From positions 11,346,001 through 11,410,000 of the forward strand of contig JAWMAR010000034.1 of the NCBI GenBank assembly GCA_036785375.1: DNA of 64,000 nucleotides, given 5' to 3'. Below are positions 14,292 to 41,625 of this stretch, one piece after another. The number at the start of each line of letters is the position of its first letter. Position 1 is the first letter of the stretch. Under the pieces are notes generated by a model. It saw only the letters and a list, made by a program, of their open reading frames with translations. It was not told where the DNA came from and did not search any database. The stretch comes from Leucoraja ocellata (Eukaryota). The translations under genes were made by a program, and so were the position numbers.

Positions 14292-15021
14292 GTAACGTCC
14301 CTCAACTCAAGGGTTGATACTTTCTGTCCAGAAACTCAATCCAACAACTGCGAGAATAATCCACATGCAACTGTAGCCGCGTGAAATACATCTCTCCCAT
14401 CAATTGCAAGTAGTGTCATTGTTTAAAGTGCAGAAATATTTCTATTATTTGTTGATTATATAAACTTAAAATTGGCAAATCTAGTGGATGTTTGCGTCTA
14501 AAAACGTTGTCTCTGTACTGTACACTGACAATGACAATTAAAATTGAATCTGAATCTGAATCTGAAAAACATAAACACCGGGAAACTAATATTTTATTAT
14601 TTATAATTCGATTATTGATGATATTGGGAGAATAAAATGTTTAAAATCTTGGCAGGGTTGATGGTGTGAAATGGTCAAAAACAGAGAGGAAATAGAATGA
14701 AAATGACTGGCAAAAGAAACGAGAAAAAACAGAGTTATGCAATGAGTCATTACAGTCTGGAATAGACCACTGACTGAGGTAGTAATCATGGCAAAGTCAA
14801 AAACGAATTGAAAAGGAAACTGGATAAATATCTGAAAGGAAATATCCTGGGCCAAGGGCAGTAGAGTGGGTCTAACTGGTTTGTCATATATAGAATTAGT
14901 TGGACTTAATAGGGCAATATATCTCCAAATTGCTGTTGCCTGCCTGCATGTTAACAGAAATCTTTGGTTTTCTTTTACTCTTCAGTCAATAGGAATTGAT
15001 CGACTTTGACCTTACCCGGCC

Positions 15022-15720
15022 ATGATTAACAAAGACACTTTGGTTTCAATAGCTCATCAAATTTATACCATAGGCTTTGCCATGATCTTATTTTTTGGTA
15101 TGTCTTGGGCATATGTCGCAGGATTTCAACTCCTAATCGGGGAAAAATTAATTTTGCTTGGTATTTACGGAACCCTGGTCATTGGACACTTCTTATTGCA
15201 AACAATCTTTGCTCTGGTTGAGCACTACAAGATGAAAAATATTATTCCACCATGCTGCAACACTAAATCTGTGGCGATAACCATATCAGCTTATCAAGAG
15301 GACCCTTCATATCTAGCACAGTGCCTCAATTCTGTGAAGAGCATTCAGTACCCTATCCACAAGTTGAAAATTATCATGGTTATTGATGGGAACTCAAAAG
15401 AAGATCAATACATGATGGACATATTCAAGGATATTTTCTGCGAGGAAGATATCGGAACATTTTTATGGGAGGGAAACTATCATTCTAGAAATTTTAATAG
15501 AATTGTGTGGAATCAGGAAGATGATAACAGCAAAATGTCGCAGAGAAATCCTGTCAATCTGTTTTATGGGGAGGCGTGTATCGGAAATCCAGAAAGACTG
15601 GAGGTGGAGTCGCTAATCCACACAAAGCGTTGCATTTGCATTATGCAGAAAAAGGGAGGAAAGAGAGAAGGGTTGTACACAGCCTTCAAAGCTATTGGCG
15701 ATTCGGTGGATTACATTCAG
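15022..15720 (+). CDS. HAS1: Hyaluronan synthase, HAS1-type (divergent), coding exon 1
   Basis: GCCATG start with an upstream in-frame TGA; two TM helices; HAS1-diagnostic TISAYQEDP; VIDGN; WEGNYH; GGKRE; ends DYIQ|GTATGA. 699 nt, phase 0. Confidence 0.93.
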
Positions 15721-16349
15721 GTATGACCAATACAATTAACTGTTTTCTTAGATTTTGCCCTTTCATTGATATAAATCTATCCTGGGTATCAAACAAAAAT
15801 GCAGTATCTTCTGATATTCTGCAACTGGAAGCTGAAGAAAGTTTCCATTTGACCCACATGACTCATTATTCCTTTTCATTCCTACTAGTTGTTACTTCAG
15901 AGAATATTGAACCATCATCTGCAAATGATTCTGATCTGACCCGAAATAATAACGATTTTTCCACCACAAATGCAGCTTGACATACCTGCAATTTCTATTT
16001 TAATTTTACTGAACCATCCTATTTTGTAATTAGAGGAACATGGTGATTTTGTGCCCATCCTAGTCTCTTGGAAAGTGGTGGCCTCCTTTAGCAGTTTAAT
16101 ACAAGTAAACAGCTTTTGGGACATTACAGGCACAATTTAAAAATTGTCTTGAGAATCTATGCCACATTGTCAAGTGAAAAGCTACCCAATTACAAACATG
16201 GGTCTTATGGGAAATAAGGCAGATGAAAATGCCGTTTTGGCAAGGTTTTCATCAAAACAATCCAGCTGATTTTTCTCTATGAATCCTCAATGTTTAAATG
16301 TAGTATGATTCTTTAATCATATCAGATGCAAAGTTTCATTCTCACCTGT

Positions 16350-16728
16350 GATACTTACAAAATTCTTAAGGGATTGGACAGGCTAGATGCAGGAAGATTG
16401 GTCCCGATGTTGGGGAAGTCCAGAACAAGGGGTCACAGTTTAAGGATAAGGGGGAAATCTTTTAGGACTGAGATGAGAAAAACATTTTTCACACAGAGAG
16501 TGGTAAATCTGTGGAATTCTCTGCCACAGAAGTCAGTTGAGGCCAGTACATTGGCTATATTTAAGAGTGAGTTAGATGTGGCCCTTGTGGCTAAAGGGAT
16601 CAGGGGGTATGGAGAGAAGGCAGGTACAGGATACTGAGTTGGATGATCAGCCATGATCATATTGAATGGCGGTGCAGGCTCGAAGGGCCGAATAGCCTAC
16701 TCCTCCACCTATTTTCTATGTTTCTATG
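16350..16728 (+). mobile_element. CR1-type LINE 3' end (HER1-like)
   Basis: TYKILKGLDRLDAGRL...RTRGHSLRI...FFTQRVVNLWNSLP, followed by the 3' UTR and a (TTTCTATG)n tail. Confidence 0.85.
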
Positions 16729-17081
16729 TGAAGGACCCTATAGCAGAGCTGAGTTTGCATTCTGGCTTTTGATTGGTCTTACACTGTCATAACTACTCCA
16801 GGAAGTATTTAATTGTTATTGATATATCATGCAACACATTGGTGCAGTTCCTGTATTCTTTACATCTTGATTGTAGTTCTGCTTGGTCATTATAAAGTAT
16901 ATTAATTACAGATGTTTAGAATGTAACTTCTCATCTACTCATATAACCTAGATATGGCATTGTAATTATATGGGTATACTGATACAGCAGGCATAGCCAT
17001 TTAACCCGACTAATACTCCATTGCTTAATATACTTCTGCGTATGCGCTGACTACTGCTCAGATAAAGTTAATTTTACTGGA

Positions 17082-17808
17082 GACACACGGACTGCAGATG
17101 CTGGAATCTGGAGCTTCTCGCATACCACCATCCAGGATAGTATAAATCCATTGACTCTCACAGTTCCCTTGACTACGTCTCATCCAATCCAGTACTTTGT
17201 CGGACTTTGACCGTTTTTCTTATTTTCTCTGCCTCCATTGCATCTGTTCTCAAGACATATAAAATGGCATGCTCTTCTGAACACATCAACCCAATAGTAT
17301 CAACAGTGAATTTTCCAACTGCAGGTAACCCAATCTTCCTGTGATTCTCTTTCTCTCACCTTCTGGTTCAGTACCCCCTACCCCCCCCCCCCCCCCCCCC
17401 CCAGATTCTACTTATCATCTTATTTATCAGATGCCAGATTGGCTGCCTCTTGTTTCCACTTATTTCCTTCCAGCCTGTCTCTACTTCTACCCTTTCATCC
17501 GTATGCCTGCTCCATCCGCCCCTTTCTTTAGTTATCTCTCCCTATCACGCACCAACCACCATCTCCTGACCCCATCCCTCCTCTTACCCCACCTGGCTGC
17601 ATCTGCCCATCATCACTCACCTTACCTGGCTCCACCTATCGCCTGGTCAGCCCTTGCCTCGCCCCCTCATTCTCACTTGAACTGGCTATCACACCTCTGT
17701 TCTTTCAGTCCAGATGCAGGATCTGGATCTGAAACGTCCTCGGTCCCTTTGCCTCCACAGTCGATGCCTGACCTACTGAGTTCCTCCAGCAGGTTATTTT
17801 TTGCTAGG
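17082..17808 (+). mobile_element. Degraded Penelope-like element: RT/GIY-YIG remnants, terminal repeat and short inverted 5' piece
   Basis: YKSIDSHSSLDYVSSNP (17141-17191; cf. KPTDSHSYLDYTSSHP) and THQPNSINSEFSNCR* (17281-17328; cf. the GIY-YIG end TLQPNGMNIEFSNFR), then a C/T-rich tract and a degenerate hammerhead-like terminus at ~17707-17738. Confidence 0.65.
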
Positions 17809-18084
17809 CTAATTTAATTGAGCTGCTGGAACTTGACTTGATACCAATGCTTATTTGCAAATCTGTATCCATGACCCATCATTTTCTAATTGAATAATTA
17901 CAAGATTAGAAAATCATGAACATACAGATTTTTGTGGTTTTCCTTATTAATTGAATGCTTTTGTATTGTGATCTCATATAGATTATGTATATTCAATATG
18001 TGAATAGATTATGTATATTCAAAAATGAATTGCATAAAATTAAGAATGACCTGGATATTTTTATGAAGGATTATATACTTTTAG

Positions 18085-18310
18085 GTCTGTGATTCTGATA
18101 CAAAACTTGACTCGCAAGCAACTGGAGAACTGGTTAAAGTCTTGGATTCAAATGAAAGCTGCGGAGCAGTCGGAGGTGAAGTGCGAATTCTCAATGTCAA
18201 TGATTCCTTCATTAGCTTCATCAGCAGCCTGCATTATTGGACTGTGTTCAATTTGGGACGAGCTTGCCAGTCTTATTTTAATTGTGTCTCCTGCATCAGT
18301 GGACCTTTAG
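18085..18310 (+). CDS. HAS1: HAS1-type hyaluronan synthase, coding exon 2
   Basis: TTTTAG acceptor; VCDSDTKLD (DxD motif)...[11 protein letters not shown]...[17 protein letters not shown]; donor G|GTAAGG. 226 nt, HAS1-type intron position. Confidence 0.93.
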
Positions 18311-18824
18311 GTAAGGAATGGAGGGGAAAGTAAAATAACTTAATTGAGAATGTCATGATCCTCAAGAGTTATTAAAAACTATCACCTGGTATACATGAAA
18401 CTTCCACAAAATAGCTCAGGATAAAGCATTTTACAGATAGAAAACTTACCAGCTGCATAGACTTTTTGCAGATTAGACCAAGCCTGAACAAGAGTCAAAG
18501 AGAAGATAAATTACAATTACAAATGTCATGTTTTGATTTCAAAAGCAAATTAAATTCAGTACAAAAGCCATTGGCTAGAATAAGAGATTTTATGATGTTT
18601 CATTGCACCATGAAAGCAGTATTTCAAATTAGGAATAACAAAGGGGAAAGATCATACGAGAAGCTGGTTGTAGTTGTATCAGAGTGTTAGAATGAGAAGG
18701 TCAATAAATACACGTGAGCTCAACTGACTTTAACCTGTTTCAATGTTCACTTATAATCCTGGTTTATCACAAAGCGATCTGTCCATGATCTATATTCATT
18801 TCTAACAATTACTCTTTGTTTCAG

Positions 18825-18957
18825 GGATGTACAGGAATAATTTGATCCAACAATTATTGGAGCCCTGGTACAATCAGAGATTCCTAGGAGTCCGGTGCAC
18901 ATTTGGGGATGATCGTCATTTAACTAACAGGGTACTCAGTCTGGGCTATTCCACTAA
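18825..18957 (+). CDS. HAS1: HAS1-type hyaluronan synthase, coding exon 3 (absent from the ORF track)
   Basis: TTTGTTTCAG acceptor; (G)[43 protein letters not shown](K) with the catalytic GDD at 18905-18913; donor AA|GTAAGA. 133 nt; phases join correctly. Confidence 0.93.
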
Positions 18958-19650
18958 GTAAGAACTAAATCCAGCTTTTGCTTATTAGTGTAATACGATA
19001 ACATGATTTGTGTTTTAAACAGTGATGTTAAATGTCAGCTTTTTGTTTCTGCTTAGTTAAATTAGGTTCATCTTAGGCAGTATTTTTAGAAAAAGAACCT
19101 TAATATTCTGCCATGATTATTTTTTTTAATTTTCTTTTCTTCTTGTAAGTCAGTTCTCCTCGCTGAGGTTTAGTTTTATTGGCATTTGACATCTGATCAC
19201 AAATGCTGGCAGACTATATTGGCATTCTTTCAAATTGGCATTATTGGCATTCTTTCAAATTGGCATCACTAGACAGTAATTTGAGCAGGAAGTCTTGAAT
19301 CATCACCTTGATTTTTTAAAATCTCATATCCACTCTTGTAGCCAATTTAACAAGGTCATAATGTTATCAAATATCCTTGTTTATATAGCATTACCATATT
19401 GAGCACTAAATCAGTGCTCTTCAAAGTAATCTAACTTTTAAATTGGTTCAAATTATTTTTGTCACTGTTCAACCATGAACCTCTTCCGCTTGCAGAGATT
19501 AGTACAAGTTGGATTGGAATGCAAGACATGGCAATATCCATGGTCAACTGGCTTATTGGACTGGAGAAAACATTTGCTAGATTTTATTATTGTTAAATTA
19601 AAGTTAATTCTGGAAAACCAATAACTAAACTGCAATTTTGCTTCACTCAG

Positions 19651-20326
19651 ATACATGCCCAAGGCTTGGTGCTATACAGAAACTCCAGCTCAATATCTCC
19701 GCTGGCTCAATCAACAAATACGTTGGACTAAGTCATCTATCATAGAATGGATCTACAGTTCCCGCTTCTGGCACAAGCATAGTCTATGGATGACATATGA
19801 AGCAGTAACTATGGGGATTTTGCCATTCTACATTTCCGTGTCTGTCATTAAGCTATTCTACTACGGCTGTCTCTGGGACATTCTATGGATGCTCCTATTC
19901 TTCCATGGCTTTGGACTCATTAAAGCGATCAATGCTTCTTCTCTAAAGAGAAGTCCACTGATGATCTACCTATCCCTGTTTCCAACCTTCTACCTGTGGG
20001 GGTTACTGCCCATCAAATGCTTTTCTCTTATTACCATTACCAATACTGGCTGGGGAACATCTGGACGCAGAGAGAGAGTCAAGAACTACATCCCACTTTT
20101 TCCTCTCTTAGTTTGGGGCATTATTCTCCTTGTGGGTTTAATTGAGACACTCTTCACAGAGTTTGAAGGTGCATGGACCCATCAGCAGCAGTTGTCAGAA
20201 AAAGATTATATTCTTTCCAGTTCAGTGACATTATTTTTATTTTATACAATTCTAATATCAACCTACCATCTGTGGTCTTGGCACCGACATAGAAGAAACA
20301 CTGCAATGTATTGTGTTGAAGTGTAG
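19651..20326 (+). CDS. HAS1: HAS1-type hyaluronan synthase, final coding exon
   Basis: CTTCACTCAG acceptor; ETP, QQIRW (QxxRW), WMTYE, GWGTSGRR and several TM helices; ends YCVEV*. Spliced CDS is 699+226+133+676=1734 nt (577 aa). AATAAA at 20674 and 20707. Confidence 0.93.
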
Positions 20327-40678: not shown

Positions 40679-40927
40679 ATGGCGGGTGGTGGCGACGTCT
40701 GTCGGGGCTTGATCCTCCTGCATACCCTGCTGCTCCTGGCTGCGGCTCGACGGCCCTACTATAAGCCGCACACTCTGCACGTTGACCAGGGACTGGCCGC
40801 CGACCCGCAGGACAGCAGGGTGATGACTTTGGCGGCTGGTTTGTCGGAGGAAGGGCCGCTCCGGAGGGACCAGCATCGGTGGCGCAGGAGCATCGACAGC
40901 CCTCATCTTGTGGACCTGACGGGACAG
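40679..40927 (+). CDS. SORL1: SORL1/SorLA-like receptor exon 1 (signal peptide and propeptide)
   Basis: AAGATGG Kozak context; hydrophobic LILLHTLLLLAAA; PQD motif; furin site RWRR|S; ends LTGQ|GTACAG in phase 0, like the GQ end of SORL1 exon 1. Joins in frame to exon 2. Confidence 0.8.
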
Positions 40928-41625
40928 GTACAGTCGCTGGTCAACCTACCCCTCCCCCCCTACACCCCCACACCACCTCACACCCCCACACCCCGCATCT
41001 TGTGGACCTGACGGGACGGGCAGTCACTGGTCAACCTAACCCCCCCACACACCCCACACCACCTCACACCCCCACACCCCCCCCCCCACACCACCTCATA
41101 CCCCCCAGACCCCGCATCTTATGGACCTGACGGGACAGGTACAGTCGCTGGTCAACCTACCCACCACCCCCCCCCCCCCCACACACCCCACACCCCCTCA
41201 CACCCACACACCCCGCATCTTGTGGACCTGACGGGACAGGTACAGTCACTGGTCAACCTACCCCTCCCCTCACACCCCCCACATCACCTCACCCCCACAC
41301 CCCGCATCTTGTGGACCTGACGGGACGGGTACAGTCACTGGTCAACCTCCCCCTCCCCCCCCTACACCACCTCACCCCTACACCCCCCCCCCCCCCACAC
41401 CACCTCACCCCCCCACACACCCCACACCCCACACCCCGCATCTTGTGGACCTGACGGGACAGGTACAGTCATTGGTCAACCTACCCACCTCACACCCCCC
41501 ACACCACCCCACACCCCCACACCCCGCATCTTGTGGACCTGACGGGACAGGTACAGTCACTGGTCAACCTACCCCCCCCCCCCCCCCACACACACCCCCC
41601 CTCCCCCCCCCCCCACACCCCCCCT
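40904..41625. repeat. Minisatellite: 7 copies of a ~47-bp core containing the exon-1 splice donor, separated by C/A-rich spacers
   Basis: CATCTTGTGGACCTGACGGGACAGGTACAGTCACTGGTCAACCTACC starts at 40904, 40996, 41115, 41216, 41305, 41439 and 41527. Confidence 0.92.

Follow-up and report, generated by a model that had tools for sequence, protein, structure and literature searches.

In a 64,000 nt stretch of the Leucoraja ocellata genome (assembly GCA_036785375.1, contig JAWMAR010000034.1, here C34, forward strand positions 11,346,001 to 11,410,000; the whole stretch is called the window) we find a hyaluronan synthase (HAS)-type gene at 15022..20326 (C34:11,361,022-11,366,326, + strand). It is very probably a fourth HAS of vertebrates, a HAS1 ohnologue that arose in the two rounds of vertebrate genome duplication (2R) and has been kept in cartilaginous fishes. 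Given this identity, we see about an even chance that the protein acts as an attenuated synthase, that is a slow and weakly processive HAS which would release little or short hyaluronan (HA); for identity and mechanism taken together we estimate a probability of roughly 0.45. The vertebrate HAS family has been described with three members (in the part of PMC3581078 used here), and a fourth, 2R-derived member would complete the expected vertebrate set. Databases annotate the chondrichthyan orthologues automatically as 'HAS1-like', and most shark and ray genes carrying this name would then not be HAS1 orthologues. No description as a separate lineage was found in the literature searched, which left subscription papers and the supplements of genome papers outside; such supplements may list the ohnologue. 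An earlier note on this DNA had offered an uncharacterised extra HAS lineage in cartilaginous fish as one of several readings, and orthologues, tree and synteny now support it.

The gene lies 20 kb upstream of SORL1 and about 260-280 kb from a mir-100/let-7/mir-125b cluster. The exon at 40679..40927 (+), with signal peptide, propeptide and RWRR site, is likely SORL1 exon 1, judged by the known anatomy of SORL1, and SORL1 itself is confirmed by a downstream VPS10 exon at C34:11,431,912 (SorLA match, E 2e-34). Beyond SORL1 follow mir-125b (C34:11,623,820), let-7 (C34:11,645,338) and a mir-100 type microRNA (C34:11,646,714), all on the - strand. The exon at C34:11,070,684 is SC5D-like, presumably SC5D judging by its motifs, and in human cluster D is flanked by SORL1 and SC5D. 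The mixed microRNA clusters A (mir-99b/let-7e/mir-125a, chr19), C (chr21) and D (mir-100/let-7a-2/mir-125b-1, chr11) all go back to 2R, and in human and teleosts it is cluster A that HAS1 flanks (both from the part of PMC3384580 used here). The window gene is thus located at cluster D with SORL1 and not at the cluster A of HAS1, and a HAS1-type gene beside D together with HAS1 beside A is the signature expected of an ohnologue pair.

Orthologues were retrieved from 20 named chondrichthyan species, comprising skates, sawfish, stingrays, devil rays, ten galeomorph sharks, Heptranchias and Callorhinchus. In a quick tree of 40 rows they group as a single clade with SH-aLRT 100 and a stem of 0.49, nested in the HAS1 group (SH-aLRT 99) and apart from HAS2 and HAS3. 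Heptranchias perlo carries both the orthologue (XP_067826812, on a 33.7 Mb contig) and a canonical HAS1 (XP_067831307, on a 15.7 Mb contig). The two are 56.6% identical, and at the 205 alignment columns with at least 97% invariance across 211 other HAS proteins the orthologue departs 20 times and the canonical HAS1 twice. As Heptranchias has both genes, on separate contigs, the window-type gene is probably not HAS1 itself. The ohnologue identity is carried by two findings, a paralogous block in this genome and coexistence with HAS1 on another contig in Heptranchias.

Several points weigh against the proposed identity, and others, given further below, against the mechanism. The gene neighbours were read in this genome alone. 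Sisterhood of the clade with Heptranchias HAS1 is not rejected (AU p 0.45), nor is sisterhood with the frog DG42 clade (AU p 0.46), so that the base of the HAS1 group is open. The earlier note had asked for a separate canonical HAS1, which is present in Heptranchias; none was found in this genome, where part of the searches used a stricter first look. Heptranchias HAS1 is also the only canonical HAS1 from a chondrichthyan among the best 120 of 489 matches, and the window-type gene may be the only HAS1-type gene in most chondrichthyan species. No HAS1 remnant was seen in the examined stretches of C34, in contig C1390 (285,000 of 285,613 bases) or in 300 kb of contig C113. Neither was a mir-125a-type match found in the genome, and since this marker of cluster A was not found, loss of the HAS1 locus and its non-assembly are indistinguishable here. 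At 6.45-6.66 Mb of C113, mir-125b precedes EURL and a number of TRIM-type exons (RING/B-box), and because it carries EURL this contig looks like cluster C. The genes HAS2 (C287) and HAS3 (C388) are both present. On C1390 a degenerate TG satellite of 151 kb (1-151,000) lies directly downstream of a mir-99/let-7 pair and reaches the contig end.

An inverted second copy of the gene is found at C34:10.04 Mb. The match extends beyond 60 kb, takes in the SORL1 and microRNA markers and has 96-99% identity. The two assembly copies of the gene differ by five silent and two replacement changes (p 0.008). Mirrored or duplicated blocks recur in the assembly (C34 9.76-10.11 vs 11.30-11.65 Mb, C297, C4, C388 and C5084), suggesting retained haplotypes, and run X1 gave a single exon-4 contig, which carries the four letters of the second copy. 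Because of both observations the second copy is likely a haplotype duplicate. As to SORL1, a GC-rich region precedes its likely first exon in the window. Just inside intron 1, at ~40900-41580, stand about six imperfect tandem copies of the exon 1 end with its splice donor, separated by C/A-rich spacers, and these could be alternative donors.

The gene itself consists of four coding exons, all on the + strand, and three introns, all GT..AG, encoding 577 aa and a stop codon. Residues are numbered below as in Xenopus laevis HAS1 (XlHAS1) unless the window protein is stated. Coding exon 1 (15022..15720, aa 1-233) holds transmembrane helices 1-2 and the N-terminal glycosyltransferase (GT) domain with E93 (=E109), DGN, K211 (=W215) and K214 (=K218) of the window protein. 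Exon 2 (18085..18310) holds DSD, GGEV, interface helix 1 and C303 of the window protein, exon 3 (18825..18957) the priming loop and GDDR, and exon 4 (19651..20326) ETP, QxxRW, transmembrane helices 3-6, the WGTSGRR gating loop and the stop. Upstream of the ATG, a pyrimidine tract that ends in AG (14968..14985, +) is, judged from sequence, likely the acceptor of a non-coding first exon. Searched against PDB 8smm (Xenopus HAS1), exon 1 gives E 1.6e-53 and exon 4 E 2.8e-52. The window protein is 99.0% identical to the 'HAS1-like' model of Leucoraja erinacea and 97.2% to that of Amblyraja radiata. A Pfam search of 73 of the 98 window ORFs returned just a weak GT2 match and one chance match, and an Rfam scan of the window gave no match. 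For the Amblyraja orthologue (97% identical) the predicted model has a mean pLDDT of 68.8 and a TM score of 0.85 against XlHAS1, and the predicted fold is that of a HAS, with a GT-A domain, 2+4 transmembrane helices and three interface helices.

The open frame, canonical splice sites and intact motifs reported in the earlier note were all found in place, and each substitution it listed was confirmed at the codon. Intact are DGN (15385), the DxD motif as DSD (18091..18099), GDDR with the catalytic base (18905..18916, GDD = 18905-18913), QxxRW as QQIRW with R381 and W382 (19712..19726) and the WGTSGRR gating loop (20051..20071, WGTSG = 20051-20065). In total the window protein keeps H72, E109, K218, D240, D242, Y288, F292, R296, C307, C337, D341-D342-R343, E367, R381, W382, S385, K448, W491, T493 and R496, and thereby all the catalytic motifs E109, K218, DxD, GDDR, QxxRW and WGTSGR. 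The functional background on single residues comes from parts of PMC11750622 (XlHAS1) and PMC12987647 (CvHAS). Alanine mutants of K218, R381, W491 and R496 are dead in XlHAS1 (PMC11750622), and as all four are kept, every residue shown to be essential in the part of that paper used here is intact. The equivalents of K218 and R381 clamp the carboxylate of glucuronic acid (GlcA) in CvHAS (PMC12987647).

The replaced residues, in window protein numbers, are K211 for W215 (15652..15654), G217 for V221 (15670), E265 for D269 (18178, GGDV to GGEV), H283 for R287 (18232..18234), G291 for E295, followed by R292 which is the retained R296 (18256..18261), M355 in the YTxRS segment (19655), and S382-I383-I384 for Y386-F387-R388 (19736..19744). 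All were read on the + strand. Among the segments that the earlier note lists as shared by vertebrate HAS1/2/3, YTxRS is not invariant, as the active Xenopus laevis HAS1 whose structure is solved has T-H-K-S there and X. tropicalis has1 T-P-K-C. Of the two channel-entrance arginines R287 is His but R296 is retained, as is K448. Position 215 corresponds to CvHAS H174 in the uracil pocket, and H174A is essentially inactive (PMC12987647). R287 adjoins GlcA-2 at the channel entrance; R287A lowers turnover to ~15% and gives a short product, and R287K gives polydisperse HA (PMC11750622). R388, seven residues past the QxxRW Arg, equals CvHAS R348 by offset from QxxRW and is Ile in the window protein. 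In CvHAS this Arg sets the priming loop during insertion of the uridine diphosphate (UDP) sugar UDP-GlcA, and it is conserved in bacterial and eukaryotic HAS (PMC12987647).

Overall the window protein departs at 30 of the 205 invariant columns, more often than chance would give, since the 211 comparison proteins have a median of 0 departures and a 95th percentile of 7; these proteins are a redundant set rich in teleost HAS1 in which no mammalian HAS was identified by name. R388 is Arg in all 209 homologues covering it, and in 135 of the 136 covering it among 149 distant representatives. Of the 135 distant representatives with a residue at position 287, 133 have Arg or Lys. Position 215 varies among the same 149 (His 82, Trp 24, Asn 9). 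The protein might still be a normal HA synthase in which the changes are compensated and which makes long HA as HAS1 does. The retention of R296, K448, H72, Y288, F292, C307, S385 and the gating loop would fit this, as would the His or Asn at position 215 of many distant relatives and the R287 kept in five sharks. The near universal R388 argues otherwise, as does the loss of length control in XlHAS1 even with R287K, and between skate and Callorhinchus the HAS-type gene is 60% identical vs 89% (472/532) for HAS2. We find such a compensated enzyme improbable. From the same two identities it follows that the HAS-type gene evolves faster than HAS2.

The 19 orthologues that were scored depart at 20-36 of the 205 invariant columns; Rhincodon was excluded from this scoring for its mispredicted N-terminus. 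In all five orthologue pairs tested the invariant columns change 3-7 times less than the variable ones, and the window and Heptranchias orthologues differ at 17 of 205 invariant vs 122 of 347 variable columns (p 2e-13). All 20 orthologues share the substitution D269E. Callorhinchus keeps R388; every one of the 19 elasmobranch orthologues has Ile or Met at this position. E295G is found in seven of eight batoid orthologues, and V221G is confined to the window, Leucoraja and both Scyliorhinus. Position 287 is His in 9, Cys in 5, Ser in 1 and Arg in 5 orthologues, for which the tree needs five changes, and this repeated change to three different residues fits relaxed constraint better than one adaptive switch. 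Both His and Cys would be one CpG transition away from a CGY codon, and the skate codon is CAT. An assembly error or a private change in this genome is ruled out by substitutions common to several species. The earlier note had named assembly error or private decay as what would refute it; with orthologues in 20 species and substitutions common to several of them, the gene belongs, as far as sequence can tell, to a constrained lineage and is not in private decay.

In Hypanus and Hemitrygon W382 is Ser and R496 is Tyr, and full-length frames of 578 aa are kept. These two proteins are, from their sequences, likely inactive, natural dead enzymes. This bears on the claim that the gene encodes a catalytically silent pseudo-enzyme with a non-catalytic role, for example UDP-sugar binding or modulation of HAS2/HAS3. 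The claim probably holds for the two stingrays, as R496A abolishes XlHAS1 activity (PMC11750622), and it is a possible though unlikely account of the skate protein, where it can draw on the 30 departures at invariant columns. The tested catalytic residues are kept in the window protein and the other 18 orthologues; the exceptions are R343H in Cetorhinus and the Rhincodon model, whose N-terminus is mispredicted. Such retention is hard to explain without catalysis.

RNA evidence was taken from about 6% of a single polyA run made from a related organism. Eight of 7,335,232 reads fall on exons 2 and 3 and downstream of the stop, none in introns, and no splice joint is listed. Their direction is that of sense RNA as expected in most stranded libraries. 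In a separate read search no read fell on exon 1. A redundant duplicate in slow decay, intact merely through the slow genome evolution of chondrichthyans, would be in line with the very few reads, with the 'LOW QUALITY PROTEIN' flag on the Leucoraja database model of the gene, with the repeated losses of key residues and with the catalytic losses in two stingrays. The persistence of the frames in holocephalans, sharks and rays and the conservation of the invariant columns in five of five pairs speak against it, and we regard slow decay as very improbable.

For the attenuated synthase we propose that UDP-sugar binding and transfer are retained, with DxD, GDDR, QxxRW, K218 and the gating loop in place; the retention of this machinery across the clade would mean that catalysis still matters. 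Loss of R287 would weaken the hold on the growing chain where it enters the channel and lead to its early release, and loss of R388 would leave the priming loop less well positioned for UDP-GlcA and lower turnover further. Judged by the XlHAS1 mutants, relaxation of the residues for chain holding and for the GlcA donor would thus give early release and low turnover, and the bulk of HA would be supplied by HAS2 and HAS3. The short HA suggested in the earlier note is consistent, by analogy, with the published R287 mutagenesis. On the other side, no single residue of the clade defines its chemistry, with R287 kept in five sharks and R388 in Callorhinchus. The role of R388 is structural only, with no R388 mutant found in the papers used, and the combined change of R388, E295 and W215 could, by analogy, leave the skate enzyme dead. 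The eight reads without a splice joint are also weak evidence, suggesting low-level transcription. A fourth, 2R-born HAS with a changed product, either short HA or oligosaccharides rich in N-acetylglucosamine (GlcNAc) serving as a dedicated signal or matrix component, seems unlikely; if true, it would be a natural HAS working without an Arg that HAS enzymes, from those of viruses to those of vertebrates, almost always have. How HAS enzymes control chain length and discriminate their two substrates is an open question (in the parts of PMC11750622 and PMC12987647 used here). The clade offers a natural mutant series for it, with R388 lost and R287 kept in the white shark, both lost in the skate, R287 lost and R388 kept in the chimaera, and the catalytic Trp lost in the stingrays.

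Compared with chitin synthase and NodC, which are GlcNAc-only GT2 enzymes, the window protein has the same GT2 core and the GDD/GED and QxxRW motifs. In contrast, NodC is only 27% identical to the Amblyraja orthologue, and chitin synthase and NodC (one skate chitin synthase and one NodC compared) have Glu at the R287 position where the window protein has His; this Glu may be a defining feature of chitin synthases. The comparison bears on a switch of product to GlcA-free chito-oligosaccharides or another glycan. Both lost arginines are at GlcA-related sites (PMC11750622, PMC12987647), and when aligned by eye the skate chitin synthase is hydrophobic at the F387 and R388 positions like the window protein. 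NodC, however, has Arg at 388, the GlcA-carboxylate clamps K218 and R381 are kept, R287 was changed in a way that looks like relaxed constraint, and dedicated chitin synthase genes are present on C297. The switch is thus improbable as well, and the neutral chito-oligosaccharides of the earlier note are not favoured. The skate chitin-synthase-like genes form a cluster of three at 1.47-1.78 Mb of C297, mirrored at 0.23-0.54 Mb.

The second has1 copies of sturgeons, amphibians and squamates resemble the window gene in being extra, faster-evolving genes of HAS1 type, but those sampled depart at 3-12 of ~205 invariant columns, Anolis (44) excepted. In sturgeon and axolotl the two has1 genes share a contig and their accession numbers are adjacent or close, which suggests a tandem origin for the second copies of bony vertebrates, and this would be a different origin from that of the window gene. 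The second has1 of Anolis sagrei, with departures at 44 of 203 invariant columns and broken GDD and QxxRW regions, is apparently decaying. In Xenopus a second, more canonical has1 is found on another contig, 60% identical to DG42. The sequence labelled has-rs matched has1 at all but numbering, and no true Xenopus has-rs was retrieved.

Canonical HAS1, including Heptranchias XP_067831307, shares with the window gene its side of the tree (SH-aLRT 99) and a position next to a mir-100/let-7/mir-125-type cluster (for HAS1 from PMC3384580, in the part used here). Unlike canonical HAS1, the window gene adjoins the SORL1/mir-100 cluster D and not A, and it is 51% identical to Heptranchias HAS1. The structurally solved Xenopus HAS1 (DG42) falls outside the slow-evolving HAS1 clade in the quick tree. 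This enzyme (PDB 8SMM/8SMN/8SMP, class 1-NR) has the predicted fold in common with the window-type protein and is 50.3% identical to the window protein, which keeps its E109, K218, DxD, R296, C307, GDDR, QxxRW, K448 and WGTSGR. The window protein differs from it by W215K, D269E, R287H, A291V, E295G, Y386S, F387I and R388I, further by F414L, T421S and M472L, and by its place in a separate clade.

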